NCBI GenBank assembly: GCA_029942545.1
Contig: GCA_029942545.1_4114.1
Length of the DNA stretch: 64,000 bases
Strand: one strand, 5' to 3'
Origin: a phage
The translations under genes were made by a program, and so were the position numbers. Below the pieces are notes generated by a model. It was not told where the DNA came from. It saw only the letters and a program-made list of their open reading frames with translations, and made no database searches. Below, piece by piece: positions 14,115 to 32,036 of this stretch. The stretch's first letter is position 1. Each line of letters opens with the position of its first letter.

Positions 14115-14137
14115 TATTGAAAATAAATGTGAGGTTG

Positions 14138-16584: not shown

Positions 16585-16802
16585 GAATCATAACACAACA
16601 AGATATTCTTAAGTTCACAAGGGTTCATGCATCTGAATTTGATGCTATATTATCAAAAAGTTACAACAACCCTTATACAGAAGATGTACACTACAATGAA
16701 TTATGGATGTATATACTTTTAGGTACAAATAAGCAAGAGCAAGCCGTACAGAAGTATTTGACAGCTTTACGTGATGCTACAGCTAATGGAGTATGTGTTT
16801 AA
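16581..16802 (+). CDS. family A small paralog
   Basis: motif LGTNKQEQAV; ATGA overlap. Confidence 0.65.
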   Translation: MRIITQQDILKFTRVHASEFDAILSKSYNNPYTEDVHYNELWMYILLGTNKQEQAVQKYLTALRDATANGVCV

Positions 16803-16803
16803 T

Positions 16804-17046
16804 ATGAAAGTACTGACAGAACTAGAAATGTATCATAGATTTAATAAGTACTATCATTTACTTAAACCTATACAGAGGATTAAGTGTCCCTTTGTAGTGA
16901 AACAGGTATTAATTTATGAGCATAAGTTATTTGTATCATTAGGTACGAATGAACAAGAGTATTATTTGAAGTTGTACTTGATTACATTAATAGATTTAAT
17001 TCACTATAAAACCAAACAAGCTAATAAAGAGAAATATGAAAACTAA
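16804..17046 (+). CDS. family A small paralog
   Basis: motif LGTNEQEYYL; ATG 16804 directly after upstream stop; track start 16771 is upstream. Confidence 0.6.
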   Translation: MKVLTELEMYHRFNKYYHLLKPIQRIKCPFVVKQVLIYEHKLFVSLGTNEQEYYLKLYLITLIDLIHYKTKQANKEKYEN

Positions 17047-17377
17047 TATTCAACTCAATGTATACAGTTCAGAAGAACATACATATATAAAATGCAGTCT
17101 ATGTAAAGATGTAATGGACTACAAGGGTAAGCCATTCACAATTACTTATGATTCTTATGTTAATGATTTATATATATCATTTCTTAATTACGAAAAGAAA
17201 ATATACAAGCACGTTGATATTAAAGATTTAAGTACTTTATCAGCAGAGGAATACTTTCAGGAATCGTTAGTATGGGATTTGGAGTTTCCTATGCCATTAG
17301 TACACAAAATGGTGGTCCTAATGAAAGAAGCTAAACCGGAGTTTAATGGTTATGAAGAACACATTATTGAGTACTGA
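17036..17377 (+). CDS. family B paralog (FQxS-motif protein)
   Basis: motif SAEEYFQESLVWD; first member of the array. Confidence 0.65.
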   Translation: MKTNIQLNVYSSEEHTYIKCSLCKDVMDYKGKPFTITYDSYVNDLYISFLNYEKKIYKHVDIKDLSTLSAEEYFQESLVWDLEFPMPLVHKMVVLMKEAKPEFNGYEEHIIEY

Positions 17378-17388
17378 TACAAATTATC

Positions 17389-17417
17389 TTGACAGTACGG
17401 TAAGGTAGTGCTATAGT
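17389..17417 (+). promoter_or_regulatory. sigma70-type promoter (TTGACA-N17-TATAGT)
   Basis: -35 17389-17394, -10 17412-17417. Confidence 0.55.
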
Positions 17418-17457
17418 ACTTTCACATTTAATGTACGTTCAATAAAGGGTAGATATT

Positions 17458-17703
17458 ATGTTAAATTTTTTAAATTTCCTTATCGTCTTGTGTATTGTTC
17501 TTGGAATTGCACCGTTTGTATTAGCGTATCTGGATTCAGATGAAATGCAGAAGATGAATTGCACAAAGACAGGACAGAGTAGAGAAGAGACGGTTATGAT
17601 GCCTGTAACGGTTATTGTGAATAACATACCAATTACGAACATGATTCCTACCCTAACGACAACGTACCAGTACTCTTGTGCAGACGGAGAGAGGTGGAGA
17701 TGA
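17458..17703 (+). CDS. small membrane protein (81 aa)
   Basis: hydrophobic N-terminus LNFLNFLIVLCIVLGIAPFVLAYL; own promoter. Confidence 0.55.
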   Translation: MLNFLNFLIVLCIVLGIAPFVLAYLDSDEMQKMNCTKTGQSREETVMMPVTVIVNNIPITNMIPTLTTTYQYSCADGERWR

Positions 17704-18020
17704 AATTTAATATAGCAAAAACATCTAATGTATGTATATTTGGTTATGCTGATGAGTTAGGTGATCTTGACATTCTATTGTACAAAAAGGATGGTGTTAT
17801 GCATTTCAAGTACCAGGATGAAGAGGCAGACAATTATCCTTTACCTAATTTAGTACAAATGCAGGAAGAGGAATTATTCCAGTACAGCTTAGTATATGAC
17901 ATTGATATTTGCACGATGCCAGTACTAATTAATATTCAAAAAGTGATGCTCGATGTGTTTGATAGGCTAATACAAGGCACACAAGGAAGAACCATATATG
18001 TCAATGTACAAGACAATTAA
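17700..18020 (+). CDS. family B paralog
   Basis: motif QEEELFQYSLVYD; ATG 17700 overlaps upstream stop (ATGA); track start 17676 is upstream. Confidence 0.6.
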   Translation: MKFNIAKTSNVCIFGYADELGDLDILLYKKDGVMHFKYQDEEADNYPLPNLVQMQEEELFQYSLVYDIDICTMPVLINIQKVMLDVFDRLIQGTQGRTIYVNVQDN

Positions 18021-18213
18021 TCAAGAATGGAAGACCCAAAAGTACAGGGAATTCAGTACTAGTTTAACAAAAGATGAATTGAATTTAAAAAGAACAGAGT
18101 TTGATATGTTTATTTTTCTTGGAACACGTTCACAGGAACAATACATTCATTATTATATAAGTTCATTGCGAACGGAGATCGTATGCAAAACACAGGGTAT
18201 TATAAAAAAGTAA
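17998..18213 (+). CDS. family A small paralog (interspersed in family B array)
   Basis: motif FLGTRSQEQYI. Confidence 0.6.
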   Translation: MSMYKTINQEWKTQKYREFSTSLTKDELNLKRTEFDMFIFLGTRSQEQYIHYYISSLRTEIVCKTQGIIKK

Positions 18214-18449
18214 ACCAATATTTGTACGCATCGAAGTACAGGGATTTTTGTTTAAAGGGTGGTGATGAAGATTTTTCTTTGCGATTATCAGAATTTAATC
18301 TGTTATTTTATCTTGGTACATCGGAACAAGAAGAAATGGCACAGAAATTTATCAAGCACCTTGAACAAAAAATTCATATGCAAATTTTGATGCTTAAGGT
18401 ACATAATGAGATAAACAAATATGAACCCAACAATAGTACAGGATCTTAA
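18183..18449 (+). CDS. family A small paralog (interspersed)
   Basis: motif YLGTSEQEEMA. Confidence 0.6.
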   Translation: MQNTGYYKKVNQYLYASKYRDFCLKGGDEDFSLRLSEFNLLFYLGTSEQEEMAQKFIKHLEQKIHMQILMLKVHNEINKYEPNNSTGS

Positions 18450-18810
18450 ACAAGTAATATTCCTTTTGAATACAAGAAGTGAAATGTATACAGAGTTTAA
18501 AGAGATTAATGCATTTTATCAGAATTTTGTAATTCAAGAGTTCAGTGATTTAATTACAGATGCATTATTTGAATTATCGGAAAAATACAAAGGAACAGAG
18601 TTCAGTGTTAAAAATGTATTACGTTCTTTATCAACGCGTATAATAAAATTAGATCATTTTACATTTGACAATAAAGATTTATTCAGTCACAATCCAAGTA
18701 CAGCTTTATATTTTATTCCTGATTCAGACAAAAATCATCCTATTCATTACGGATGGATTTTGTCGTACATAGTACAAGGAAAGGAGTATCCTATTAAATG
18801 GAACGATTAG
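18421..18810 (+). CDS. hypothetical protein (129 aa)
   Basis: ORF track; no family motif. Confidence 0.5.
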   Translation: MNPTIVQDLKQVIFLLNTRSEMYTEFKEINAFYQNFVIQEFSDLITDALFELSEKYKGTEFSVKNVLRSLSTRIIKLDHFTFDNKDLFSHNPSTALYFIPDSDKNHPIHYGWILSYIVQGKEYPIKWND

Positions 18811-18958
18811 GGCGATTAGATTATTACACAATTAATACAAATTATTTGTTGCGTAATATAAAATCCGATTACAAAATATGGATAAAGAACAGAGATAGTA
18901 TGTGTTATGAATTTTATTTAGATTATGCCATCAAACGCTTTTTAAGAGAAGAACATTA

Positions 18959-19150
18959 ATGCACACCACGCACACAGAGCACAAAAATACAAAAACGATA
19001 AATGTTTTAAATGATTCTTTATTGGTGAGTATAAATTTATATTATAAAATTCATTTAAATGGTGGTATTGAAAATTTTAGTTATTATTTGAGTACAATAT
19101 CGCAAGAGCATTTAATATACCAAGATCATTTATTGCACCCGAATCCATAA
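18959..19150 (+). CDS. hypothetical protein (63 aa)
   Basis: ORF track; no RBS seen. Confidence 0.35.
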   Translation: MHTTHTEHKNTKTINVLNDSLLVSINLYYKIHLNGGIENFSYYLSTISQEHLIYQDHLLHPNP

Positions 19151-19158
19151 GGCAAATT

Positions 19159-19710
19159 ATGAATGATATAGAATTATTAGCACACAAGATTAGTACAATA
19201 ATGCTTATCCTCAATAACAACCATCCTATATCGAAGATAGATGGAATCCTGAGTCAGAGGACAGGTGGTAGTTTATATTTGACATTAACAGAGGTTATCG
19301 CAAGGAATTACATTGATATTGAAATCGAGAACAGTGATGCATCAGGAAAGGTTAATGTAGGTGCAGGTGCATTAATCAGTTCAAATCCAGTATCAGCATC
19401 CCCATTAACCAAAGGTGTTAGTACAGGATTCGAAGGGTATTTGTGGTACAATACCAATGATGATTATTTTATATATCAGAAGTCAAATACCAATTACGAT
19501 GAAGATAAGTTTTATTTTATAAACCCCAACGATGAAGCTGAAGTATTTCAAAAATCATTAATTTTAACCCATCATCAGATGTTATATCTAATGTTATTCA
19601 GTACAATGCATTTGAATCCATTAATTAAAGGTTTAAAATTTTATATTCAATTGAAATTAGTCCATGTAGTTTATGATTTATTAATGCAAGGATATAGTTA
19701 TGAAGTATAA
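19159..19710 (+). CDS. family B paralog
   Basis: motif DEAEVFQKSLILT. Confidence 0.65.
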   Translation: MNDIELLAHKISTIMLILNNNHPISKIDGILSQRTGGSLYLTLTEVIARNYIDIEIENSDASGKVNVGAGALISSNPVSASPLTKGVSTGFEGYLWYNTNDDYFIYQKSNTNYDEDKFYFINPNDEAEVFQKSLILTHHQMLYLMLFSTMHLNPLIKGLKFYIQLKLVHVVYDLLMQGYSYEV

Positions 19711-20011
19711 AATGCTGTATACCCCAGATATGATTTATGTTGAATTAGAAGATGATGACGATGGGTGGAATTTGATTTATTCAAGAAGTTCAGGTTGGTA
19801 CATGGCACATTTAAATGATTCGATAGTTACAGATTATTTTTTAGATTTCAATACATTATCCGATGAAGAATTGTTCCAACAGCAATTAGTGATTGACACG
19901 GGTGGTTATGATGTCTTATTATTAAAAAAGATACAGAAAGCTGTTATTGATTTTAAGCCCATGATATGGCAAAGGAAATATTATGACCTCGAAGTACCGT
20001 ACCAGCAATGA
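19700..20011 (+). CDS. family B paralog
   Basis: motif DEELFQQQLVID. Confidence 0.65.
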   Translation: MKYKMLYTPDMIYVELEDDDDGWNLIYSRSSGWYMAHLNDSIVTDYFLDFNTLSDEELFQQQLVIDTGGYDVLLLKKIQKAVIDFKPMIWQRKYYDLEVPYQQ

Positions 20012-20549
20012 AATTCAGTACACCTACGCTAATGCAATCCTTATGGGACAAAAGTTAGCTTGTATTGTTGCAGCCTTATATAATGCCCAGAAATATCACA
20101 AGCGTCATTTCCACAAATGTATTGGTATTATTCCATCGAAGTACAATACATATATTGCGTGCACGAGTCATTTTGATAAACGATTCAATACACCTGATAC
20201 CCCAAATGCCAGTAGTGTTATTGGTCTTTTGGATTTCGCACCTGGTGCTGTTATTGGAAAGAATGATTTAGAGTACACATGGTATAATAAAAATGCCCCG
20301 TTAGTAATGGTAAAATATGATACAGAAACGAATAAAACAATAGAGTACAATACATATAAATCAGAGGAAGAATTTTTCCAAGGTTCATTGCTTGTGCCAG
20401 TGCGTTTGTTGTTTTATAATGTCCTTATTAGTACAGTACACAATAGTCCATTACACAAGAATCACAAAATTAATTTCAATTTTTGTGCTTATGCGATTGA
20501 TGGTGTGTATGAGTGTTTAATGGAGGTATTGAGTTATGAAGCTGAATAA
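19983..20549 (+). CDS. family B paralog
   Basis: motif SEEEFFQGSLLVP. Confidence 0.65.
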   Translation: MTSKYRTSNEIQYTYANAILMGQKLACIVAALYNAQKYHKRHFHKCIGIIPSKYNTYIACTSHFDKRFNTPDTPNASSVIGLLDFAPGAVIGKNDLEYTWYNKNAPLVMVKYDTETNKTIEYNTYKSEEEFFQGSLLVPVRLLFYNVLISTVHNSPLHKNHKINFNFCAYAIDGVYECLMEVLSYEAE

Positions 20550-20877
20550 TACATTTGATATTAATAAGTTAAGAGAATGGTTTTATAGTATTGAAATTGA
20601 AGCCATCCCGTATCATAGATATGAACAATATAATTTAACCAGTATTGATATCAGTGAGTTGTACGCGTATTATCAAAGTGCATTAGAGATGCATAAGTTA
20701 TTTTTGAGTACAGATTTTGTTCTAAATTACAATTTTGAGGAATTTAATAATTATAATTTAGTACAGAAATATGTAGTAGCAAAGTATATGTACCTTCAAG
20801 GAATTACAAGTAATTTGGAATTCAATACAGTCCTTGCTTTAGTTGAGGTAATTTTATGCAGTACATGTATGATTTAG
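20536..20877 (+). CDS. hypothetical protein (113 aa)
   Basis: ORF track; in array but no clear motif. Confidence 0.5.
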   Translation: MKLNNTFDINKLREWFYSIEIEAIPYHRYEQYNLTSIDISELYAYYQSALEMHKLFLSTDFVLNYNFEEFNNYNLVQKYVVAKYMYLQGITSNLEFNTVLALVEVILCSTCMI

Positions 20878-21362
20878 AGTTCAGCTTAGATGCTGCATTT
20901 AAATATGTTCACAAGATAGAAACAATATACAGTACATTATGTGCAATAAAATCAGTAACAGAAGAGCTTGATGTTGGTGAAAAATATCAGGTATGGAATA
21001 ATACATTTCTAAACAAAGAACGTTGCTCTACGGGGTTTAATATTTTAACATTTAATCCCAGCAATTGTTACCCAGAGAAGCATGAACGTTATCCGAATGA
21101 CGACATGTGGTTTGATTACACAAAAGATGGTGATATGTCATCCCTTGTAGTTCCTGATGATTTTAATGCCGAAGATTTAACGGAAGAGTGGTGGTTTCAA
21201 CAGAATTTAGTACACGATGATATTGATTTATTTTTTTATGTAGTATTTAAAATGCTTTACCACAACAATATATTAAAAGATAGTGTGTTTTTTTCATGTC
21301 TATATATTGATGATTTGTACAATGAAATCCAAATCAACATACCCAGAACGCCTGTATCGTAA
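20856..21362 (+). CDS. family B paralog
   Basis: motif TEEWWFQQNLVHD. Confidence 0.65.
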   Translation: MQYMYDLEFSLDAAFKYVHKIETIYSTLCAIKSVTEELDVGEKYQVWNNTFLNKERCSTGFNILTFNPSNCYPEKHERYPNDDMWFDYTKDGDMSSLVVPDDFNAEDLTEEWWFQQNLVHDDIDLFFYVVFKMLYHNNILKDSVFFSCLYIDDLYNEIQINIPRTPVS

Positions 21363-21387
21363 GATATGGGCTTTTTTCGTTTTGGTA

Positions 21388-21416
21388 TTGACAAAGAAGT
21401 GCAAAGCTGTTATCAT
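21388..21416 (+). promoter_or_regulatory. internal sigma70-type promoter (TTGACA-N17-TATCAT)
   Basis: -35 21388-21393, -10 21411-21416; followed by RBS AAGGAG and a GTG start. Confidence 0.5.
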
Positions 21417-21444
21417 GTGTAATCATTTTAAAGGAGAACATATA

Positions 21445-21957
21445 GTGAGTTTCATAATCCCTAGTACATACGAAGATGCATCAAGTGCAGTTCATAAGAT
21501 TCATTATATTTTTAATTTAATTATTAGATCTGCAAAAATTAAAATGTATGCACCTCTTGTGGAATACGATAAAAATGAGGAAATTTTTGTTAGCACAGAC
21601 CAAATTATTTTTCCATATTTCAATGAAGATAGATTGTGGTTCATGCATTTAGCTGCATTACAAAAATATAAAATGTCAATTCGTAATAATTTGGATATAC
21701 CGTTATATCATCCTGATATTGGAGAGGATGAATATTTTCAGTACAGTACAGTACACCGCCATGAAGATATCTTTGTTGCTATGCTTATTGCTAAATTGAA
21801 TACCGTTGATTTGGAGCAGTACAAATACAATAATAAATCATGTAAGATCATAATCCCTGCATTCATAGCTCTTTATGATTATGTGGTGCATAACAAAAAA
21901 GATGATACATATGCTTTCAATGAAGAGTATTTGAATTTTTTTAAGGAGAACATATGA
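21445..21957 (+). CDS. family B paralog (GTG start)
   Basis: motif GEDEYFQYSTVHR; GTG 21445 is 8 nt after AAGGAG; track start 21283 lies upstream of the promoter. Confidence 0.6.
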   Translation: MSFIIPSTYEDASSAVHKIHYIFNLIIRSAKIKMYAPLVEYDKNEEIFVSTDQIIFPYFNEDRLWFMHLAALQKYKMSIRNNLDIPLYHPDIGEDEYFQYSTVHRHEDIFVAMLIAKLNTVDLEQYKYNNKSCKIIIPAFIALYDYVVHNKKDDTYAFNEEYLNFFKENI

Positions 21958-22481
21958 GCAGTGAAGTGCTGAAATCAATGACATTCAATGAAATTGGTAC
22001 ATTTAAAGATAAGATCATTGATTGCATTGAATACATGATTTGTAGTAATATCGAAAGTATCGAGATATTTAACAAGACAAATCGCTCTTACCATATGATG
22101 TACATTGCAAACAATAATGGTATCATTCCATTTATTTCGGATAGTACAATATGGTACGCATGTGATACGAAAAAAACCACAATAGGTTTACATTCATTTG
22201 AGACACATTATGATCTAATTATTCCTGAACATTGTATGCAAGAAGAAGAATATTTTCAAATGCAATGTATACATTCACCATTAGTGTTGTTTAGTTTATA
22301 TATTATACCTTATATCACCAAATGTGTTCATGAGAATAAAGCTCCGTGGAATCATGAATTTGTATCGTTGAAGTTATTGTATAATGTATTAGTAGAATAT
22401 TATGATTACAGGCACAATGGTACAATCAGTGATGTATGGGATTTTGAATCGCTAAGGGTGAAAACATACACAGGTGAATGA
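21954..22481 (+). CDS. family B paralog
   Basis: motif QEEEYFQMQCIHS; RBS AAGGAG. Confidence 0.65.
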   Translation: MSSEVLKSMTFNEIGTFKDKIIDCIEYMICSNIESIEIFNKTNRSYHMMYIANNNGIIPFISDSTIWYACDTKKTTIGLHSFETHYDLIIPEHCMQEEEYFQMQCIHSPLVLFSLYIIPYITKCVHENKAPWNHEFVSLKLLYNVLVEYYDYRHNGTISDVWDFESLRVKTYTGE

Positions 22482-22482
22482 T

Positions 22483-23097
22483 ATGACCAGAATTAAAATG
22501 TATGATTTGATGCTGTACAGTAAAATTGCCATTCCAGTGCTTAATAAAGTGCTGGATGCATTCATTGCCAAATACCCTGAGAATTCAGTGTTATGTATTC
22601 CATTTAGTGTTCCAGATAAAGATGATATATTCCAAGTGAATGTCAGTACACGTGGTATTACATTGCAGCAGAAATATATGGATACGGAATATTATGGAAT
22701 AAAGTTGGATTCAGTACAGGGTTCTAAATCAGCCTATGATTTTTTTGTTCCTAATAACATCGAGTCATGGGAAACAAACATTTCAAAGAAAGATGAAAAT
22801 GATGTTCCTATTAGTGGTGTGTTCAACAATAAAGTTTTTTATTATTACGAAACCGACAAATTCCCTGAAGAGTTATATTACAATTCAGAAATGAATGAAG
22901 ATGTAGATGCATTCATGTTTCAATTATCGTTAGTACATGATATCATTGATGTTCAAGAGTTAAGAGCAGAAATCAATTTAGCTAAAGAGTTATCGGACAT
23001 GCTCCCACCGTTTAGTATGCTTTTTTGTGAAGGAGGTTATTTTTCAAAAGAAGTGTTTGAACATTTCGTAGATGTTGTAAAAGGGTTGGATATATAG
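22483..23097 (+). CDS. family B paralog
   Basis: motif VDAFMFQLSLVHD; ATG 22483 with AGGTGA RBS; track start 22474 is GTG (alternative). Confidence 0.6.
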   Translation: MTRIKMYDLMLYSKIAIPVLNKVLDAFIAKYPENSVLCIPFSVPDKDDIFQVNVSTRGITLQQKYMDTEYYGIKLDSVQGSKSAYDFFVPNNIESWETNISKKDENDVPISGVFNNKVFYYYETDKFPEELYYNSEMNEDVDAFMFQLSLVHDIIDVQELRAEINLAKELSDMLPPFSMLFCEGGYFSKEVFEHFVDVVKGLDI

Positions 23098-23098
23098 T

Positions 23099-23293
23099 AT
23101 GCTTATAATTGATATTAAACAAAAATACCGTAAGTTTGATTGGTTCACCGATAGTTTCCAGCTTGAATTATTACATATGAATATCAGTGAAACATTATGT
23201 GCAGAAACACAAGATGAATTTGATGATAGAGTGATGAACATAGTAATGCTTTCTTGCTTTAAACATTTTGGTTATTTTTTCGGACAGAATTGA
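23099..23293 (+). CDS. hypothetical protein (64 aa)
   Basis: ORF track; degenerate FQLELL. Confidence 0.45.
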   Translation: MLIIDIKQKYRKFDWFTDSFQLELLHMNISETLCAETQDEFDDRVMNIVMLSCFKHFGYFFGQN

Positions 23294-23301
23294 GGTAAAA
23301 A

Positions 23302-23817
23302 ATGCATCAACACAAGCATCATTCATATGATTTTGCAATTAACATTATGAAGTTCATTCGAGCGTTGGAGGATGGGAAGCTTAGTCATAAGTACAGGAAA
23401 GAGGGTAACAATTGGTTCAGAAATGATTCCGAGTTCAGTTGTCATAAAATCGTGTATAGTAATCAGTACAGTGCCAATTACCTACAAGATGTAGTGATGT
23501 GTTTTGAATACGTGTTGCAGTTCAGGGGTTCAATCCAAGATGAGTTGATGGAGAACATGTACATCCGATACCTTCCAATGCTCAAAGATGAAAATGTATT
23601 ATTAAATTCAATATACCAACGAGTTCGTGAAATTGAGTGCAGGGATATATTAGATACAGAAGAATCGTATTTCCAGCAATCCCTGATTTATTCACCTGAT
23701 TTATTACAGGTACATAATTTGTTTAATACATTACGTCAGAACATCAGTACAGACATATTTTTGTCATTATCGGATTATGATACATTTGTCAAAGATTTAG
23801 AGGAAATAGGTTTATGA
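23302..23817 (+). CDS. family B paralog
   Basis: motif TEESYFQQSLIYS. Confidence 0.65.
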   Translation: MHQHKHHSYDFAINIMKFIRALEDGKLSHKYRKEGNNWFRNDSEFSCHKIVYSNQYSANYLQDVVMCFEYVLQFRGSIQDELMENMYIRYLPMLKDENVLLNSIYQRVREIECRDILDTEESYFQQSLIYSPDLLQVHNLFNTLRQNISTDIFLSLSDYDTFVKDLEEIGL

Positions 23818-24155
23818 GTCGATTTTCGGTTTGTGTGGTAAACATAAAAAGTGATGGTAGTTTAATTGAATTAGATGTATATGATGATGATAATGCATAT
23901 GGTATTAAAGTACAGGACAATGATGTGCAGTTCAGTTCAAGAACAAATTTTGAAAATCCAGTCCAAGTTCCTAATTTCATAGAAGATGAAGCAGCACGTT
24001 TCCAATACGAAACGGCATATGACAATGTACATATGCATATTATTATGCAACAAAGTTTAGTTCAATTAGTTCCTTTGTTCAGACAAAATATATATGTACA
24101 TGAATTGTCGATCAATGACGTTCGCAGTTCCGTATTGTTCGATACAAATATGTAA
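23814..24155 (+). CDS. family B paralog
   Basis: motif EAARFQYETAYD; ATGA overlap. Confidence 0.6.
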   Translation: MSRFSVCVVNIKSDGSLIELDVYDDDNAYGIKVQDNDVQFSSRTNFENPVQVPNFIEDEAARFQYETAYDNVHMHIIMQQSLVQLVPLFRQNIYVHELSINDVRSSVLFDTNM

Positions 24156-24165
24156 GGAAAGTACA

Positions 24166-24708
24166 ATGAGTTTATTAGATACATTAGAAAAAGACAGAAG
24201 TGCAATTAAGCGTTTAAAAGAGCAAGTACAAAAGATTGTATACAACGTTGATAAGTTTGAGGTTCCCGGAAGATTTGGTGATATTTCCCATACGGAGATC
24301 AAATCCCTTAAGTCAGATTTGTTGATTAAAAATAAAAATGGGTTGATTTTAGTTTTGAGTTCAGATATGATGGGGGCAACACATAGTTATAATGCCGTAT
24401 CGGTGCGTTCAGAGTGTGAAGGTATATATCTATCACAGGGTTTCAATAGCGAGACACAGGTTTGTTTTTGTGATGCAGTACATGACCCTATGAAGTTCAC
24501 GAGAAGTGAAGCCCAAGCGTTATTAGAGCTATCAGACGAGAGTTTGTTTCAGTACAGTACAATGTATGACAATGATAAGCTTCGTTGTATGTACGCTGTA
24601 AAGCATTATACACAGGAGTTTTCTGGATTTGCATACCTTTTAGTTAGAACCAATACCAGATATATTGATATGTTAGAAGATTACATCGATAAAGTTGTTA
24701 ATGTATGA
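24166..24708 (+). CDS. family B paralog
   Basis: motif SDESLFQYSTMYD; ATG 24166 after RBS TAAGGAAA; track start 24094 is upstream. Confidence 0.6.
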   Translation: MSLLDTLEKDRSAIKRLKEQVQKIVYNVDKFEVPGRFGDISHTEIKSLKSDLLIKNKNGLILVLSSDMMGATHSYNAVSVRSECEGIYLSQGFNSETQVCFCDAVHDPMKFTRSEAQALLELSDESLFQYSTMYDNDKLRCMYAVKHYTQEFSGFAYLLVRTNTRYIDMLEDYIDKVVNV

Positions 24709-24723
24709 TTATGTGATGGGATA

Positions 24724-24891
24724 ATGCTGATGAAAGAGTTATTTGAAGATCAGTTCAATACATATGTGGATAATATTCTTTATTCCAGCCGTGCTAGTCA
24801 ACGAGGAAATCGTGCTTACAATATAGATTACCTATTAGTGGTGCTGAGTTCACAGTACACCTACGCTGTACAGAGGACATATTATGAATAA
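24724..24891 (+). CDS. small hypothetical protein (55 aa)
   Basis: ATG 24724 to TAA 24889-24891; fills a gap; below track cutoff. Confidence 0.3.
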   Translation: MLMKELFEDQFNTYVDNILYSSRASQRGNRAYNIDYLLVVLSSQYTYAVQRTYYE

Positions 24892-25087
24892 TTTTAGAGA
24901 TGTTGCTAAGGAGAAGTTCAAGTGCAGTTTAGATTTTGGGTTAAATGATTTTCTGACATGCACAATGTACAGGAATGATGATTATGAGCAATCCGTAATT
25001 TCGTTGCACAGATATTTCGAAATAATTTACGCAAGATATCTTAGAAGGTTAGAGGGAATAGGGGATTGGAATTATGATTACGTTTGA
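24884..25087 (+). CDS. hypothetical protein (67 aa)
   Basis: ORF track. Confidence 0.45.
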   Translation: MNNFRDVAKEKFKCSLDFGLNDFLTCTMYRNDDYEQSVISLHRYFEIIYARYLRRLEGIGDWNYDYV

Positions 25088-25298
25088 AGAGCCGGAAGTG
25101 GCATATTGCTTTAGTGTGAAAGGTTTTGAATTCATGATGGATTCTATTTTGAAGGATACATATTTGGTTCAGATTGCAGTTGCAGATAATACAGATAATG
25201 CATTACAGCGAGTATTGAATATATACGAGAGGACGAGTCGAAGGCTTTGTGCAATGAAAAGGATTGAAGAAATCAAGGTTTCTAGGCTGAATAAATAG
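25074..25298 (+). CDS. hypothetical protein (74 aa)
   Basis: ORF track. Confidence 0.45.
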   Translation: MITFEEPEVAYCFSVKGFEFMMDSILKDTYLVQIAVADNTDNALQRVLNIYERTSRRLCAMKRIEEIKVSRLNK

Positions 25299-25504
25299 AG
25301 ACGTTTCATTTTGACAGGCCGCAGGGGGGGGTCAAAAAAATTTCCGCTGAAAAACATGCTAAGGTATATGTTTAATATAAAGTTTTATATTGTGTTTTTC
25401 AGAGTACAGTTCATGTTTCCTTAAACAAAAAAATACCCCGCCGCTGCTACGTGCTCCTTATATTGGAGTTTACCTTATTAATTACAGTAGAGATTACAAT
25501 TGAA

Positions 25505-25888
25505 ATGAAGATGCAAATAAAATATAATGAATTTTGTGCAAGGACATTCATGTACACAGGTGAAATGGCGACGCATTGTAATTTGTTTAAAGGTGACTTA
25601 AACTACGCTAGGGACAAGATTTTAAAGTACTGGAATGCTAACTTTTATTTGATGGATTTTAGTACTGGGTTTCATGGGATATCTATCGAGATGCCGGACT
25701 ATACAGTACTTGATGATGCTGCACTGTTTCAGGAGGCATTAGTATTTGATAAGAAGTACATCTGTACATTAGAAGAGATGATTGAATTACAGCGTAGAAT
25801 TAAATGTATTCACAGGGAATGTATAGATATCTGGTGCAGTACTGGTGAAGATGATTTTTGTAATCATTTCAATCTAGGGGAAGAGTGA
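25505..25888 (+). CDS. family B paralog
   Basis: motif MPDYTVLDDAALFQEALVFDKKYICT; ATG 25505 (MKMQIKY); track start 25451 is upstream. Confidence 0.6.
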   Translation: MKMQIKYNEFCARTFMYTGEMATHCNLFKGDLNYARDKILKYWNANFYLMDFSTGFHGISIEMPDYTVLDDAALFQEALVFDKKYICTLEEMIELQRRIKCIHRECIDIWCSTGEDDFCNHFNLGEE

Positions 25889-26112
25889 TGGAATTTGATT
25901 TTTTAATATCAGTACATACGGTCAAGGGTGCACCTCAGTACCTTTGTAATTTAAACAAAGGTGATTTGATTATGGATACAGATACAGAGGTTGTATACAG
26001 TTCTAATGTTCTGTGCAAGGAATTTCAGAATTCGAAAATGCTTGAGTTATTGTGCATTGCTGATTGTAATATTCTGTACAAATTCAGTACTAATCTGAAG
26101 GAGATTTTATGA
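25888..26112 (+). CDS. truncated family B-related protein
   Basis: N-terminus MEFDFLISVH...CNLNKGDL near-identical to gene 26477 but lacks the FQxS half. Confidence 0.5.
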   Translation: MEFDFLISVHTVKGAPQYLCNLNKGDLIMDTDTEVVYSSNVLCKEFQNSKMLELLCIADCNILYKFSTNLKEIL

Positions 26113-26477
26113 AAAAAGAAATTAGAATCCAATTCGGTATGAGGAAAAAAGAGGTCATCTGTACACTGAATCATGCGGACGTGGAAATGGGTGGTGCATT
26201 ACAAAAATTCTCACATTTTGTTCTTGTACTATATGAAAATGGGTCTTTTAAAATCTTCACATATGATGATTCAAAAAATTACCGTAATGATTTTGTAAAT
26301 CTTACAGTACTGTCAGAAGAGGAATTCTTTCAGGAAAGTACTGTCTGGAATTTACAAGGAGCACCAATTGAATACGTCCGTGCTACACAGGTAGAGATGA
26401 TCAAAACAATGCAGAACTATCCAGAAGATTATATGACTAAGTTTCCTGAATCTTTTAATGTAGAGGTTGAGTACTGA
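26109..26477 (+). CDS. family B paralog
   Basis: motif SEEEFFQESTVWN. Confidence 0.65.
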   Translation: MKKEIRIQFGMRKKEVICTLNHADVEMGGALQKFSHFVLVLYENGSFKIFTYDDSKNYRNDFVNLTVLSEEEFFQESTVWNLQGAPIEYVRATQVEMIKTMQNYPEDYMTKFPESFNVEVEY

Positions 26478-26833
26478 TGGAATTTGATTTTTTAATATCA
26501 GTACATTCTTTTAAGCACAGTTTTCAGTACTTTTGTAATTTAAACAAAGGTGATTTAATGCACAGTGCGAATGAGTATATTCATTTTACTGATGGTAAAT
26601 TCTCATTTATTGATTACAGTTCATTAGATTTTCCATACACTGATATGCCGGACTATACATTGATGGATGCTGGTGAACTATTTCAAGCTGAATTAGTATT
26701 TGACAAGAAGTACATCTGTACATTTGAAGAAGTAATTACTATACAAAATGAAATGAAGGTGTATGCATCGTTGAATAAACCTAATGAATGTATTAATCAA
26801 GAATACAAATTCAATATAGGAATTCCAAAATGA
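26477..26833 (+). CDS. family B paralog
   Basis: motif MPDYTLMDAGELFQAELVFDKKYICT. Confidence 0.65.
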   Translation: MEFDFLISVHSFKHSFQYFCNLNKGDLMHSANEYIHFTDGKFSFIDYSSLDFPYTDMPDYTLMDAGELFQAELVFDKKYICTFEEVITIQNEMKVYASLNKPNECINQEYKFNIGIPK

Positions 26834-27189
26834 CATATGATTATTCTATGTACTATTATAAGTTGCCTAAAGGATGGGACTTGTGCTGTAATCTTATTAA
26901 GGGAGACTCGGAACATGAGTTGAGTTTATATATGCACTACAAAGATTCTTGTTTTAAATTTATTCATGTATTACATGATGGCTATGACTATGAATCTGAG
27001 AGTCTTATAGATTATACAGTACTGGACGATGGTGAACTATTTCAGGAAGCATTAGTGTTTGATAAGAATAAGTACTCCTGTACATTTGAAGAAATGGTTT
27101 CTTTGCAAAACGAAATGAAGAGATTTGAAAAAGAAAACGTATTTAATCCATCCCCATCAAGAACGAATAATTATTATTTCAATATATGA
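26830..27189 (+). CDS. family B paralog
   Basis: motif DYTVLDDGELFQEALVFDKNKYSCT. Confidence 0.65.
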   Translation: MTYDYSMYYYKLPKGWDLCCNLIKGDSEHELSLYMHYKDSCFKFIHVLHDGYDYESESLIDYTVLDDGELFQEALVFDKNKYSCTFEEMVSLQNEMKRFEKENVFNPSPSRTNNYYFNI

Positions 27190-27198
27190 GATTATAAA

Positions 27199-27693
27199 AT
27201 GACATTACAGAGTTCATTGGAAAAAGCAAAGAAGATTCATGAGTACATGAATATGGCAAAAGAAGGTTCAGTTTACGGTGTTTTCAAAGACACAAGTACT
27301 CAATATTATGTGCCGGATAACCTCCTTTATAATGACTGCTCAGATACAGAAACGTGCGTACTGGATACAGAAACATGCATACTAGATACCGACCCTAATG
27401 ATTATGAATGTTTCATTGATATGCATAATGAGTACATGGTCTATATTAATGATGCAGATATTACCATATACAGTACTGACAGCGATTCCGATGACATTAT
27501 AATTCCGAGTGAAGTACTAGAAGGTCCGTGGGATAGTGAAGAGTATTACTTCCAACAAAGTACTGTATACGATGATGAAGTACTTGATGTTATTATAATT
27601 ATGTGGTACTTTAAAAGTATTGGTTCTGGGAACTTCTATTTCGATTACAAATACGTAAAGAAAACTGTAGATAACGGTATTAACAGGGGTTGA
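27199..27693 (+). CDS. family B paralog (MSLxxALE subfamily)
   Basis: motif SEEYYFQQSTVYDDEVLDVIIIMWYFKSIG. Confidence 0.7.
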   Translation: MTLQSSLEKAKKIHEYMNMAKEGSVYGVFKDTSTQYYVPDNLLYNDCSDTETCVLDTETCILDTDPNDYECFIDMHNEYMVYINDADITIYSTDSDSDDIIIPSEVLEGPWDSEEYYFQQSTVYDDEVLDVIIIMWYFKSIGSGNFYFDYKYVKKTVDNGINRG

Positions 27694-27694
27694 A

Positions 27695-28165
27695 ATGAGT
27701 TTAGAAAGAGCATTAGAGATTGCGAAGTTAATTGATTTATGCAGCAAAGAAATTGTAGCAAATTGTCTCAATGGATATCTATTCAAGGAAGGTAAATCTT
27801 ATTGTCGAATGAGATACGATGACAGTAGTGAGTACATTCACATGTACGATGAAAACTTAGATTCTTCTGAAACAACACTCAATGGGTGTGATGTTAATTT
27901 GGAAGATAATTACATGTACTTCTGTCGTGATGCTGATATTTTAATACAAGATTCTGACATTCTAACTGGTGGTGAAGAGAAACATCTTCCGTATTCAGTA
28001 CTGGATAATAACTGGGGTAGTGAAGATTACTATTTCCAGCAGAGTACTATATATAATGAAGATATACTTGACAAACTTGTTATTTCTTGGTACTTTCATA
28101 ACACGGATTATAGTAGCTTCTACATAGACTTGGATCTACTAAGAGTACTTAAAGAGGATATATGA
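27695..28165 (+). CDS. family B paralog (MSLxxALE subfamily)
   Basis: motif SEDYYFQQSTIYNEDIL. Confidence 0.7.
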   Translation: MSLERALEIAKLIDLCSKEIVANCLNGYLFKEGKSYCRMRYDDSSEYIHMYDENLDSSETTLNGCDVNLEDNYMYFCRDADILIQDSDILTGGEEKHLPYSVLDNNWGSEDYYFQQSTIYNEDILDKLVISWYFHNTDYSSFYIDLDLLRVLKEDI

Positions 28166-28602
28166 GTTTAGAAAAAGCACTAGAACTAGCCAACAAAATA
28201 CATCAGTACCATGATAAAATAAAAAGTGGGTTCTATGCTGATAAAGTACATGCATATGGGAATGAATATTACCTCACTGGAGTAAAGAGATACTCTAATG
28301 ATATTTTACTTATGGGTCATGATAAAGACAATAATATACAGTACTCTTCATGTAGTCAATATACTAGTTTTATGGTATATATTCCTGGTACTAAGATTAC
28401 TTTTGACACATCAAATACACCTGTTGACTTCGGAGTACTTGATGGCCCGTGGGGTACTGAAGAGTATTACTTCCAACAGAGTCTCATTTTTAACCAAGAA
28501 ATGCTTGATTCCTTGGTTGTGTTGTGGTACTTTAAGGAATTGAATTTTGAACCATTCTTTCTTGACTGGGGATCATGTGAGTATTTAATTTCAGGGGAAT
28601 AA
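28162..28602 (+). CDS. family B paralog (MSLxxALE subfamily)
   Basis: motif TEEYYFQQSLIFNQEML. Confidence 0.7.
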   Translation: MSLEKALELANKIHQYHDKIKSGFYADKVHAYGNEYYLTGVKRYSNDILLMGHDKDNNIQYSSCSQYTSFMVYIPGTKITFDTSNTPVDFGVLDGPWGTEEYYFQQSLIFNQEMLDSLVVLWYFKELNFEPFFLDWGSCEYLISGE

Positions 28603-28604
28603 TA

Positions 28605-29093
28605 ATGTCATTACAAAGTGCGTTGAAAGAAGCAAAGAAGATTCATGAGTACATGATTATGGTACAGGAAGGTTCAGTACCAGGTGTATACAAAACATCA
28701 GATACGGAATTCTTCGTTAAGGATAGAGATGATTATGACGATTCAGAGGTATGTGCAGAAACATTAGTACTGCACACTGATACTGGTGACAGTGATAACT
28801 GTGAATATCATATGTACAATCAGTACATTAGTTATTGCCGTAATGAAGATATTACCATCTACAACACAGATAGTGATGCTGATGACACTATCATTCCTTA
28901 TTCAGTACTGGAAGGTCAGTGGGATAGTGAAGAATATTACTTCCAGAATAGTACTATCTACAATGAAGAAGAACTGGATGTTATTGTGATTATGTGGTAT
29001 TTCAAAAGTATTGACTCCAGTAGTTTCTATTTTGATTATGAATATGTAGAGAATACAGTAGGAGAAGGTAATGTCATTACAAAGTGCTCTTGA
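28605..29093 (+). CDS. family B paralog (MSLxxALE subfamily)
   Basis: motif SEEYYFQNSTIYNEEEL. Confidence 0.7.
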   Translation: MSLQSALKEAKKIHEYMIMVQEGSVPGVYKTSDTEFFVKDRDDYDDSEVCAETLVLHTDTGDSDNCEYHMYNQYISYCRNEDITIYNTDSDADDTIIPYSVLEGQWDSEEYYFQNSTIYNEEELDVIVIMWYFKSIDSSSFYFDYEYVENTVGEGNVITKCS

Positions 29094-29523
29094 AAAAGCA
29101 AAAGAACTACATGGATACTTTGAAGATATAAAGGCCGGAAAGTTCAAAGAAGTGTACAAAGCCGAGAACGGTAACTACTACAAAGATGAAATGTATAATA
29201 ACTCCGTTGGTGTAAGGGTTATTCTTGGGTTGAATTCCAATAGTCCTATATCGTTTTCTGAATACAATAGAGATGCAGAATTTATTAGTTATGTTGAAAA
29301 TGGTAGCATTCGTTTTATTAATAGACAAAAACCATTAATTTTGAATTATGAAGTACTGGATGGTCAGTGGGATAGTGAAGAGTATTACTTCCAAAACAGT
29401 ACTGTATATGATGATGAAGTACTTGAAGCATTAGTTATTATGTGGTACTTCAAGAGTATTAGCTTCCCTCGATTTTATTTGGATTTCGAAGATCTTCGTA
29501 AAGATCCAGAAGGTATAGAATGA
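29071..29523 (+). CDS. family B paralog (MSLxxALE subfamily)
   Basis: motif SEEYYFQNSTVYDDEVL. Confidence 0.7.
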   Translation: MSLQSALEKAKELHGYFEDIKAGKFKEVYKAENGNYYKDEMYNNSVGVRVILGLNSNSPISFSEYNRDAEFISYVENGSIRFINRQKPLILNYEVLDGQWDSEEYYFQNSTVYDDEVLEALVIMWYFKSISFPRFYLDFEDLRKDPEGIE

Positions 29524-29834
29524 AAAACTTATTCAGTGTTCAGTACGTTCCTGGTGAAATTGGTTTATTGTATCTATTTGACCATGATAATTCATTATTA
29601 CTAGTAGTGAAGAAATGCCAAGCTAGTTCGTTTGTTGAATACATTCACGATAGTGAATACATTCCTGATTTCCTAGAGTGTGATTATCACGATGAACATG
29701 AATCATTTATTTTTCAGGAATCACTAGTATGGGATAAATCGATCAACTTCTTTACGTTAATTGAATTACAAAAGCAGGTGAAGTATTATTGGGATTACTT
29801 AATTACACAGGATTACATTGAGATTGAAACATAA
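29520..29834 (+). CDS. family B paralog
   Basis: motif HESFIFQESLVWD. Confidence 0.65.
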   Translation: MKNLFSVQYVPGEIGLLYLFDHDNSLLLVVKKCQASSFVEYIHDSEYIPDFLECDYHDEHESFIFQESLVWDKSINFFTLIELQKQVKYYWDYLITQDYIEIET

Positions 29835-30142
29835 TGACAAAAAATGAATTTGATTCACTTTGTACGGTTTATAATTCATTGACAGAAATACCTGACTTTA
29901 TTAATTACGTTTCAGCTTTAAATCAAATTATGAATAGTTTTGAACAATCGTTTGAAGAGAAATATGCAGGTAGAAAAGTTCTATGTCATATGTCAATGTA
30001 CTTGGGAGATGGTGAGCCTTACACTACCAGTACTACATGTGAAATAAAAAAATATAATATATTATTGGGCACGATAGAATTCACAGTATCCAATGGTGGT
30101 AGTTATATGTACTTTAGAGATGGAGTGGTTGAATTATTATGA
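29834..30142 (+). CDS. hypothetical protein (102 aa)
   Basis: ORF track; no family motif. Confidence 0.5.
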   Translation: MTKNEFDSLCTVYNSLTEIPDFINYVSALNQIMNSFEQSFEEKYAGRKVLCHMSMYLGDGEPYTTSTTCEIKKYNILLGTIEFTVSNGGSYMYFRDGVVELL

Positions 30143-30588
30143 GTTACGAAAGTGCAATCAAGAAAGCAAATGATATTCTAAAAGTTGTTCAGTTCTTCAA
30201 AGAAAATCCTGAATACTTAGCTGATGAAAACCATGATCACGATGAGAGATTGAGACGAAAAATTGTCGCTTTATTTGACACTAATGCGGATAATTATAGT
30301 CTAATTGAGTTAGCATACGATTATATTTCATTGAACCGAAACGGACATTTAGTTAATATAGAAAGACATGCGAGTGAAGAATCTTTTAAAATTTCAGACA
30401 TTTTATCCCTGAGTACTGAAGAAGGGTACTTCCAGGGTAGTACTGTTTATGAACAAGGGACACTTGACAATCTATGCACATTCAGTGTAATATATCAGAA
30501 ATCAGTACTGGATGTATTTTATCTTGACACTGCTGAACTGGATACACTAATCAATTTTGTTACTACTGAAGAGGCCACATTTGAGTGA
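30139..30588 (+). CDS. family B paralog
   Basis: motif TEEGYFQGSTVYE. Confidence 0.65.
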   Translation: MSYESAIKKANDILKVVQFFKENPEYLADENHDHDERLRRKIVALFDTNADNYSLIELAYDYISLNRNGHLVNIERHASEESFKISDILSLSTEEGYFQGSTVYEQGTLDNLCTFSVIYQKSVLDVFYLDTAELDTLINFVTTEEATFE

Positions 30589-31121
30589 TGAAAGTTAACA
30601 TCAATGACTTTGATGCATTACAAGATTTATCAAAAAAGATTCGTATCATCGTACCAGTACTCAAAAAATGTAGTACTGGTTTAATTGATCCTAGTACTGT
30701 TGTTAATGAGAAGTACAATTTTCATCGTGTATTACAGGGTACAGGTGCATTTCAGAAGTGTGATGTACGTGAGAAACACGTAATTGATACCTCATTGTTT
30801 TCTATTGGTGCACCTGTGTCGAATAATTCTATTTTCCTGGATAACGCAGGAAATATTCAACAATTAACATTTAAGAAAAGGAAAAAGAACAATAACATTG
30901 GTGTGTACGCGATGAAGTGGGGTCAACCTGATTTGAAGCGTGAAATTCACATCCCTAAGTACAATTACAATGCATTTGACGAACAGTGTTTTCAACTATC
31001 GTGTACTGACCCTGACTATGCAATCATTCAGTTCTATATGGAATTGCAGATAGCATTTAACAGTAATTTATATATTAACTTGTTGGCAATGAACATCGAT
31101 GAAGTATTCAAAAACATTTAA
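30588..31121 (+). CDS. family B paralog
   Basis: motif FDEQCFQLSCTDP; ATG 30588 overlaps upstream stop; track start 30585 is GTG. Confidence 0.6.
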   Translation: MKVNINDFDALQDLSKKIRIIVPVLKKCSTGLIDPSTVVNEKYNFHRVLQGTGAFQKCDVREKHVIDTSLFSIGAPVSNNSIFLDNAGNIQQLTFKKRKKNNNIGVYAMKWGQPDLKREIHIPKYNYNAFDEQCFQLSCTDPDYAIIQFYMELQIAFNSNLYINLLAMNIDEVFKNI

Positions 31122-31317
31122 TCGAATTGAATACATGAGAACTGTGAGTGCAGTGTGGGATATATGGTTCACTACTAAACCAAAAATGGATTACCATGAC
31201 TTTAAGCTCTTGTTCTTCGTTGGCTCTAACAAACAGGATGTTGCAATGAAGGGTTATATTCAGCACTTACAGGAACTAATTCAGAAGAGGGTTAATGAAA
31301 ATAATAGACCAAGATGA
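31099..31317 (+). CDS. family A small paralog (interspersed)
   Basis: motif FFVGSNKQDVAMKGYI. Confidence 0.6.
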   Translation: MKYSKTFNRIEYMRTVSAVWDIWFTTKPKMDYHDFKLLFFVGSNKQDVAMKGYIQHLQELIQKRVNENNRPR

Positions 31318-31486
31318 TATTGCTAAACTATTCAATATATATTCTACTAGAATGATGCAAACAGACTCATATAGTACTGAATTCAAAGAGTTGAAAGTAT
31401 TGATGTACTTGGGAACCCAATATCAGGAACAAGTTATTTTGGAATATATTAATTCGTTGAAGAAGGATATCCGTTATGTACGATGA
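31295..31486 (+). CDS. family A small paralog (interspersed)
   Basis: motif YLGTQYQEQVI. Confidence 0.6.
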   Translation: MKIIDQDDIAKLFNIYSTRMMQTDSYSTEFKELKVLMYLGTQYQEQVILEYINSLKKDIRYVR

Positions 31487-32036
31487 TTTAGATCTTGCGT
31501 TTGAACGTATGGTAATTTTAATGCAATGTGCAGAAATGCATGAAACAATCCGTCGCACCAAAGGGATTGAATATACAAGTAAACTATTCTCATACGAAAG
31601 TCGTCGAGGGATGGATCATTTTTACTGCACTGATTGTTCAAAGTTTTCAGTACTGAAATATTATCATCCTACTGTTTCCAATAATAGTTTAATATCCACA
31701 TATGACGGTGATCTGTTTAGTGTAATGTATGACACATTACATCCATCAATTTCAATCTATAAAGATTGCGATAGTAGTTTATCGTATATAATTGAAGATT
31801 ACTTATCTCCTAATACTGAAGAGAATATTTTTCAGAACAGTGTGTTGCATGATGAATTAAGTATAAAATGCATCTATATGTTCAATAAGTTAAAAGAGTA
31901 CGCCGATAATAATTACTTCATTGATGATTTAGCGGTATTGTCTGTTTCCGTTTTTAATACAAATGATATTGATATGAAATACTATAATGAGATTTGTAAA
32001 GTACATCATATGTATAAGGAACTATTATGTCAATAA
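31476..32036 (+). CDS. family B paralog
   Basis: motif TEENIFQNSVLHD. Confidence 0.65.
   Translation: MYDDLDLAFERMVILMQCAEMHETIRRTKGIEYTSKLFSYESRRGMDHFYCTDCSKFSVLKYYHPTVSNNSLISTYDGDLFSVMYDTLHPSISIYKDCDSSLSYIIEDYLSPNTEENIFQNSVLHDELSIKCIYMFNKLKEYADNNYFIDDLAVLSVSVFNTNDIDMKYYNEICKVHHMYKELLCQ

Follow-up and report, generated by a model that had tools for sequence, protein, structure and literature searches.

Two interleaved families of small paralogous genes in an Asteriusvirus jumbo phage

Hua et al. (2017; PMC5646251) devote one sentence to the tandem gene array of the jumbo phage 121Q, and Wagemans et al. make the same point again for phage phAPEC6. A related case is the expansion of a zinc ribbon to about 35 copies in Bacillus phage G (Iyer et al. 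2021; PMC7824862). There, as in the region studied here, dozens of small co-oriented paralogs have arisen by tandem duplication in a genome of more than 300 kb, although the zinc ribbon is unrelated to either of the families described below. The literature that we found gives no account of two such families, of how they interleave and fold, of their occurrence in Klebsiella phages (Alcyoneusvirus) or of their adjacency to a terminal repeat. Here we analyse a stretch of phage DNA of 64,000 nucleotides (GenBank assembly GCA_029942545.1, contig GCA_029942545.1_4114.1; the window), in which two families of small paralogous genes, A and B, are interleaved. Besides a large array of family A genes, the window holds two pairs of A genes located within the array of family B: pair 1 (17998-18449) and pair 2 (31099-31486). 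We hold with moderate confidence that these four genes are old members of an ancestral mosaic rather than strays from the big array, and that both families would be early, non-virion and subject to birth-and-death evolution.

Positions 17000-32000 of the window share 96.6% nucleotide identity with Escherichia phage 121Q; for other members of Asteriusvirus, the figure is 90-98%. By this comparison, the phage is an Asteriusvirus, an E. coli jumbo phage of the 121Q/PBECO4 group. Asteriusvirus comprises jumbo myoviruses of ∼350 kb with E. coli and Salmonella as hosts. The genes of the region lie without exception on the plus strand, and every one of them is annotated in 121Q as a 'hypothetical protein'; the window contains no tRNA genes. 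The arrays begin at the inner edge of a terminal repeat of ∼20 kb (PMC13070987 for its position). Families A and B cover ∼30 kb, nearly a tenth of the phage genome, and the gene map of the window reads AAAAAAAAAAAAAAAAAAAAAAAAAAAB.BAA...BBB.BBBB... (dots are genes of neither family).

Membership of the two families

A profile hidden Markov model (HMM) of family A was built from the 27 tandem genes of the main array, with the four candidates left out, and was searched against all 195 plus-strand open reading frames (ORFs) of at least 45 amino acids. The main elements are as follows, with E values given for the family A profile (A-HMM) and for phrog_4148.

11038-17046, plus strand: main array of family A, 27 genes of 66-96 amino acids in tandem, most of them overlapping (ORFs, HMM, alignment; phrog_4148)
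17998-18213, plus strand: interspersed A gene, first copy of pair 1, 71 amino acids (A-HMM, structure model); A-HMM 6.6e-13, phrog_4148 1.3e-9, motif FLGTRSQE
18183-18449, plus strand: interspersed A gene, second copy of pair 1, 88 amino acids (A-HMM); A-HMM 3.2e-8, phrog_4148 3.7e-4, motif YLGTSEQE
31099-31317, plus strand: interspersed A gene, first copy of pair 2, 72 amino acids, G-S-N-x-Q-D subtype (A-HMM); A-HMM 3.9e-7, phrog_4148 4.7e-4, motif FVGSNKQD
31295-31486, plus strand: interspersed A gene, second copy of pair 2, 63 amino acids (A-HMM); A-HMM 5.5e-12, phrog_4148 4.4e-17, motif YLGTQYQE
19159-45428, plus strand: bulk of the family B array, short and long forms with few non-family genes in between

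The profile recovered exactly four members beyond the array (E 4e-7 to 7e-13), the same four that had been proposed in a preliminary description of the window. The next ORF, at E 0.014, marks the onset of noise; genes of the main array score themselves at 1e-19 to 1e-27. All four interspersed genes carry in register the motif L-G-T/S-x-x-Q between helices 2 and 3, which reads L-G-T-N-Y-Q-E in the alignment of the main array, and they fit the family length of ∼60-95 amino acids. Across the family alignment, at least 90% of members share T43, Q46 and L57. Family A copies overall match phrog_4148, listed as being of unknown function, at E values of 1e-21 to 5e-4. With the family alignment as input, AlphaFold2 (AF2) models the protein of 17998-18213 as a three-helix bundle (helices 9-20, 25-39 and 46-66) with a predicted local distance difference test score (pLDDT) of 91.5. 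The median isoelectric point (pI) of the family is 8.7, so that most members are basic, but values reach down to 4.3.

Small, mostly basic proteins of three helices could be helix-turn-helix-like (HTH-like) DNA-binding regulators of the adjacent early operons, similar to Aca proteins, with family B supplying the regulated effectors. The sharing of operons between A and B clusters would fit such a role, and 18183-18449 has a Pfam match to SarA/Rot, albeit one below the cutoff (E 0.063). We nevertheless consider it improbable that family A is made of such regulators: no Pfam HTH family matches family A at threshold, 27 regulators in tandem would be unprecedented, and the acidic members of the family are at odds with this role.

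Family B was collected with jackhmmer from the seed 26109-26477, with 585 shuffled decoys as a control. The search returned 36 members between 17036 and 45428 and none of the decoys (0/585), and a looser scan adds few weak members. Phenylalanine and glutamine (F-Q) are invariant in 35/35 aligned members, inside the motif (S/T)-E-E-x-[YFL]-F-Q-x-S, which forms a short, well-packed helix in the AF2 model. Family B proteins are acidic (median pI 4.8), and their confidently modelled fold is of the α+β type. Short forms have ∼105-145 amino acids; long forms (∼146-224 amino acids) carry an additional N-terminal helix and extra strands. Copies of B match phrog_13866, phrog_9317, phrog_12674 or phrog_32681 at E values of 1e-42 to 1e-130. 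PHROGs thus divides among several families what jackhmmer and the shared F-Q motif join. Comparison of the B model with the PDB gave no match. Neither family has a relative in Pfam, PADLOC or the PDB, PHROGs lists both as being of unknown function, and all their database homologs are named 'hypothetical protein'. The two families are unrelated to each other, as had been stated before (HHalign probability 0.3%).

Three further features of family B are noted. Short and long forms tend to alternate between 19159 and 36471, for example at 19159 (long), 19700 (short) and 19983 (long), and at 32635 (short), 32921 (long), 33343 (short) and 33644 (long). The 75-amino-acid ORF at 25885-26112 starts like the B gene 26477-26833, whose N-terminus (MMEFDFLISVH...NLNKGDL) it duplicates before it diverges; it is probably a truncated, decaying tandem copy. 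Some copies (e.g. among 30139-30588 and 34761-35255) read EEGYFQGS or EEMYFQGS, a superficial likeness to the tobacco etch virus (TEV) protease site, ExxYxQ(G/S).

Age and distribution of the interspersed genes

The neighbour-joining (NJ) tree of family A places the interspersed copies on long branches, among the most divergent members of the family (mean identity 17-23%). None of them has a close paralog, and their identity to any main-array gene is at most 33%. The genes of pair 1 are mutual best paralogs (bootstrap 74%); those of pair 2 are not each other's closest paralog. Recent duplicates are found only among adjacent genes of the main array (11665/11877, 13848/14117, 14620/14840/15066 and 15286/15525). 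Sensitive blastn around both pairs detected no flanking repeats and no scars, and the best DNA matches to other A genes reach 57-65% over 85-245 nucleotides.

Of 34-36 Asteriusvirus records, 33 contain both loci together with their flanks, at nucleotide identities that go down to 75-80%. The divergent relatives A4 and JNE01 have the same arrangement at the protein level; the map of A4 reads ...AAAABA.BBAA...BB...AA.B... The region is collinear with A4 throughout, with ortholog identities from 23% to 94%. Each interspersed copy has a reciprocal-best positional ortholog in A4, JNE01 or both: 17998-18213 matches A4_5935-6153 (44%), 18183-18449 matches A4_6138-6395 (77%) and JNE01_24920-25150, 31099-31317 matches A4_16180-16407 (44%) and JNE01_28781-28981 (the latter at a different position), and 31295-31486 matches JNE01_34951-35160. 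Judged by the lack of close paralogs, the lack of scars at the DNA level and the positional orthologs in divergent lineages, the four interspersed genes are old and true family A members.

Unequal or ectopic recombination finds good substrates in arrayed paralogs, and recombination between the arrays was one of the two explanations offered in the preliminary description. The pairs could, on this account, have been copied recently from the main A array into the B array by recombination or transposition, and both the variable copy number of the main array between close relatives and the different position of one A gene in JNE01 might be read in its favour. Yet the divergence of the copies from every main-array gene, the short and weak DNA matches without flanking repeats, the identical positions of reciprocal-best orthologs across the genus and the presence of the same mosaic in another genus (see below) make a recent event extremely unlikely. 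The phylogeny and the synteny comparison that had been called for thus revealed divergent, scar-free copies and not the most recently derived members with recombination scars. There has been at least one rearrangement, an old one: the B block 25451-30588 precedes 31099-31317 in the window, whereas in JNE01 the order of their orthologs is reversed, with the A gene upstream. The small ORFs at 24724-25298, at the position of the 31099-type gene of JNE01, were considered as degenerate A genes; they are not.

The interspersed genes of the window are 98.6-100% identical to those of 121Q and differ by 0-3 nucleotides. The ratio of nonsynonymous to synonymous substitution rates (dN/dS) is therefore uninformative for this pair of phages, and Ecwhy_1 was chosen as the reference. 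Against it, dN/dS is 0.08 for 31099-31317, 0.15 for 31295-31486 and 0.32 for 18183-18449, and 0.55 for the fast-evolving 17998-18213, which shares 36% amino acid identity with its Ecwhy_1 counterpart. These values indicate purifying selection on three of the four genes, and weaker selection on 17998-18213.

The arrays display lineage-specific differences in copy number. Compared gene by gene with 121Q, the main A array shows 61-99% amino acid identity, and most B genes as well as the interspersed A pairs show 97-100%; 121Q is also without the copy at 13848-14114. The main A array is thus a divergence hot spot between very close relatives, which suggests allele replacement or gene conversion inside the array. 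In addition, the ENA metagenome contig P0001 (3149 bp) encodes a 154-amino-acid protein that is a head-to-tail fusion of orthologs of the adjacent A genes 15286-15528 and 15525-15755. This shows that adjacent A copies can fuse into a two-domain protein.

Word-indexed homolog searches recovered proteins of the Asteriusvirus type only, and a search of IMG/VR with a single A protein recovered only 121Q itself. More distant relatives, those in RaK2-like phages, were reached by an exhaustive search of 1.84 billion representative proteins with the B profile. It yielded 139 matches, many of which share the motif although their identity to any Asteriusvirus protein is just 25-40%. One match comes from a metagenome contig with 97% identity to the Klebsiella phages RaK2, K64-1 and Muenster (Alcyoneusvirus). 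According to Foldseek against BFVD, B-like models are confined to RaK2-like jumbo phages. We scanned Muenster with the A and B profiles derived from the window. From the end of its annotated terminal repeat (1-20030), the Muenster map reads AA.BBB.....AA.....B..BBBBB..AA.......B.AAA.....AAA..BBABBBBBBBBBBBB. The region thus holds 12 A genes in clusters of 1-3 amid ∼30 B genes and no large A array, and the RaK2-like metagenome contig shows the same pattern. Tree and best-match analyses of A-copy orthology between Asteriusvirus and Muenster were uninformative, with all bit scores at 23-40, because the sequences are saturated. As the mosaic is common to two genera, the 27-gene A array is most simply explained as a genus-specific expansion.

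The corresponding region of Cronobacter phage GAP32 was located through a gene that serves as a synteny anchor.

43163-43576, plus strand: conserved non-family gene inside the B array, 137 amino acids, synteny anchor (59% identity to Muenster_123)

Muenster_123 is labelled 'putative ADP-ribosyl transferase' after an HHpred note by the depositor of Klebsiella phage Muenster; a Pfam scan of 43163-43576 gave no match. The anchor is conserved far above the surrounding B genes. Its homologs occur in 75 phage records, including GAP32, CBB, Serratia phage BF and Yersinia phage fHe-Yen9-04. The hosts are Escherichia, Klebsiella, Salmonella, Erwinia, Cronobacter, Serratia, Yersinia, Pectobacterium and Xanthomonas, and two of the phages infect Vibrio. 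In GAP32, three genes of ∼170-200 amino acids adjoining the anchor are weak matches to family B (E 6e-4 to 6e-3), and a fourth weak match lies further downstream. A scan of the GAP32 anchor region for family A revealed no credible member.

Neighbouring genes and the relation between A and B

The surroundings of the two pairs comprise the following features.

17036-17377, plus strand: short-form family B gene, 113 amino acids, directly 3' of the last main-array A gene, 16771-17046 (jackhmmer E 4e-25, motif SAEEYFQESLVWD, ortholog in phage A4 75% identical)
17389-17417, plus strand: sigma70-like promoter candidate, TTGACA, 17 nucleotides, TG-extended TATAGT (consensus 11/12 plus TG; consensus match only)
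17458-17703, plus strand: predicted membrane protein, 81 amino acids, neither family (hydrophobic N-terminus)
17676-18020, plus strand: short-form family B gene directly 5' of pair 1 (jackhmmer E 1.9e-29; phrog_13866)
18421-18810, plus strand: 129-amino-acid gene downstream of pair 1, neither family (ortholog in A4, 55%, position conserved)
30585-31121, plus strand: 178-amino-acid gene directly 5' of pair 2, B-like in its motif only, DEQCFQLSCTD (phrog_18780)
31476-32036, plus strand: long-form family B gene directly 3' of pair 2, which it overlaps by 11 nucleotides (jackhmmer E 1.4e-16; motif EENIFQNSVLHD)

Pair 1 starts 952 bp past the end of the last array gene. Between them lie the short B gene 17036-17377, the membrane-protein gene and the short B gene 17676-18020, and the promoter candidate occupies the sole intergenic gap that separates the A array from pair 1. 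The membrane protein matches neither the A nor the B profile; its orthologs are 94% identical in A4 and 64% in JNE01, a conservation far above that of its neighbours. The B gene 17676-18020 likely starts at ATG 17700, after the ribosome-binding site GGAGAGGTGGAG, and overlaps the first A gene of pair 1 by 23 nucleotides. Both A genes of the pair have a ribosome-binding site of their own. Three non-family ORFs follow, and the next B gene starts at 19159. The boundary between the A array and pair 1 differs between relatives: SD-15_S21 (876-1280), A4 and Ecwhy_1 have one additional short B gene between the orthologs of 17036-17377 and 17458-17703, and A4 also has an additional A gene there. Copy number thus changes at the A/B boundary itself.

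Pair 2 lies 14 kb from the main A array. Its first gene overlaps 30585-31121 by 23 nucleotides, and the gene before that, 30139-30588, is a B member (jackhmmer E 1e-12), which carries the (S/T)EExxFQxS motif, as do the B genes 17676-18020 and 31476-32036. The 30585-31121 protein itself has no significant HMM match to the B profile; HHalign gives a probability of 5%, in motif register. It has orthologs in A4 (A4_15650-16183, 39%) and JNE01 (JNE01_34400-34954, 32%), each with an A gene next to it, and its dN/dS is 0.12. Among the non-family neighbours of both loci (18421, 18959, 17458, 29834, 32027 and others), none matches the A profile and a few give weak B-like signals. The earlier placement of both pairs far from the main array and between family B genes therefore needs qualification. 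The distance holds for pair 2 but not for pair 1; a B gene precedes pair 1 and another follows pair 2, but the opposite flanks are formed by non-family ORFs and by the B-like 30585-31121.

The interspersed A genes are probably co-transcribed with the B neighbours that they overlap. That A and B genes co-occur, overlap and keep their micro-synteny agrees with a functional link between the families, the second explanation put forward in the preliminary description. One form of such a link would be functional modules, in which an interspersed A protein acts with the neighbouring B or B-like protein, for instance by assisting an acidic effector as a small basic partner, regulator or chaperone, with the adjacency under selection. 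The two families co-occur, interleaved, in two genera, and overlaps of 11-23 nucleotides join A genes furnished with their own ribosome-binding sites to their B neighbours. In the window, A4 and JNE01, an A gene comes after the 30585-type gene. A short B gene with an A gene directly behind it is found repeatedly, in these three and also in Muenster. The opposite charges of the two families and the strong constraint on pair 2 (dN/dS 0.08-0.15) would also fit such modules.

The overall distribution of the genes and their history in relatives speak against them. Of the 31 A genes, 27 adjoin only other A genes and 4 lie inside the B array, and over 30 B genes lack an A neighbour. The gene map therefore lacks the one-to-one adjacency that is expected of toxin-antitoxin or acr-aca systems. 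Salmonella phage SD-15_S21 carries a clean deletion corresponding to 18014-18353 of the window, which removes the first A gene of pair 1 and the first 57 codons of the second. The phage retains the B ortholog of 17676-18020 upstream and the 129-amino-acid gene 18421-18810 downstream, unlike the joint loss or retention expected of two-gene partner systems. Three other SD Salmonella phages cover the same 85-86% of the pair 1 stretch, i.e. about the same amount is absent. These genomes show pair 1 to be dispensable in nature, in four Salmonella phages. In JNE01, the 31099-type A gene lies ∼6 kb from the 31295-type A gene, in another B context. Relative to Ecwhy_1, the B gene 31476-32036 is 55% identical, whereas the adjoining A genes are 87-97% identical, which gives no sign of co-evolution. 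Finally, no A gene was detected in GAP32, where weak B-like genes do occur.

Functional modules of this kind are possible but, on balance, unlikely. An obligate or one-to-one partnership of A and B is unlikely in view of the stoichiometry, the SD-15_S21 deletion, the relocation in JNE01 and the B-like genes of GAP32. The two families do travel together, interleaved, in RaK2-like phages.

Expression, possible function and known systems

The genes are tightly packed, and the best sigma70-like matches fall into the few gaps between them, at 11010-11037, upstream of the A array, and at 17389-17417, 34225-34254 (12/12) and 38100-38128; terminator-like hairpins lie at 21350, 38067 and 41372. Pair 1 may consequently be transcribed as one unit with B genes, apart from the main A array. 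We found no expression data for any Asteriusvirus in the literature. The virion proteome of phAPEC6 contains no protein between gp347 and gp549, a range that includes the arrays as well as pair 2 (gp433c/gp432c), so that neither family was seen in virions. Catalytic-looking conserved residues are not evident in A or B, which suggests that both are binding proteins and not enzymes. A paper on a related phage proposes early host-takeover genes in the corresponding region (PMC5259590). We favour an early role of A and B in host interaction or counter-defence, in line also with the position beside the terminal repeat and with conserved genes nearby, namely the ADP-ribosyltransferase-like 43163-43576 and the RNA ligase and polynucleotide kinase/phosphatase described below.

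The favoured reading, an ancestral mosaic, would operate as follows. In RaK2-like phages (Asteriusvirus and the Klebsiella Alcyoneusvirus), the ∼35 kb just inside the left terminal repeat are a single long stretch of small genes in one orientation, none of them for virion proteins. It is dominated by two unrelated families: A, with three-helix, mostly basic proteins of ∼70 amino acids, and B, with acidic alpha+beta proteins of 105-224 amino acids and an invariant F-Q. Both would change through local duplication in tandem and fast divergence, and now and then through loss or the rearrangement of blocks. In the layout common to both genera, A clusters of 1-3 genes would be scattered between B clusters, and the 27-gene A array would be a genus-specific expansion at one such A site. 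The A genes would be transcribed early, together with neighbouring B genes, from sigma70 promoters. Their products and those of the B genes would be diversified binding proteins for host takeover or counter-defence, neither enzymes nor obligate A-B heterodimers.

Several points weigh against this scenario. Promoter-like sites are overall not enriched compared with shuffled sequence, and for this reason the transcription unit of pair 1 stays an inference. The assignment of A and B genes to an 'early' class is drawn from position, promoters and absence from virions. A role in host takeover or counter-defence has no direct support, with no Pfam, PADLOC or PDB relative behind it. The order of events, with the mosaic ancestral and the big array derived, relies on parsimony over two genera and not on a tree. 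A specific local function could also account for the tightly conserved module of 30585-31121 and the two A genes and for the strong purifying selection on pair 2.

A bolder version would make A and B co-evolving halves of one diversified early arsenal of RaK2-like jumbo phages. B would be a fold not seen before that binds varied host or defence targets, A would modulate or escort particular B proteins, and A islands such as 30585/31099/31295 would be functional modules. We find this doubtful.

Further genes and clusters were noted outside the two families. Downstream of the arrays lie a T4-type RNA ligase 1 (58038-59180; PF09511 and PF20819) and a polynucleotide kinase/phosphatase (60004-60936; PF25109 and PF13671), a pair that is syntenic with Muenster and GAP32. 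In T4, RNA ligase 1 and polynucleotide kinase/phosphatase repair tRNA cleaved by a host anticodon nuclease. Another small paralog cluster, of four genes of 91-103 amino acids connected by BLASTP (52495, 53024, 53346 and 53620), occupies 52495-53904. Upstream of the equivalent of the window, 121Q has at 117089-135194 ∼14 minus-strand genes for RCC1-like 'DNA condensation proteins' and ∼17 tandem genes of ∼60 amino acids (genes 249-265). Some of the RCC1-like proteins are contained in phAPEC6 virions.

The interleaving of two families is by itself a modest result. The mixed A/B layout is ancient and common to jumbo phages of E. coli/Salmonella and of Klebsiella, and the big A array is, if the favoured reading is right, the lineage-specific novelty. 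The question would then move from the origin of the strays to the role of two expanding families early in infection. Handles on this question are the natural deletion variants, the constrained and the fast-evolving copies, and a confident B model that has no known fold relative.

Two kinds of known system invite comparison. In acr-aca loci and toxin-antitoxin pairs, small, diverse and often acidic proteins are encoded beside a small helical protein in one operon. Families A and B differ from them in having no 1:1 adjacency (27 A genes stand in a row), no HTH-family or PADLOC match, and a pair 1 that can be lost while the B gene stays. The terminal multigene families or 'genomic accordions' of poxviruses and giant viruses belong to other viruses and encode unrelated proteins. 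The likeness to these accordions lies in the layout: fast-diverging paralogs near a genome end that expand and contract in tandem and, in poxviruses and giant viruses, generally serve host interaction.

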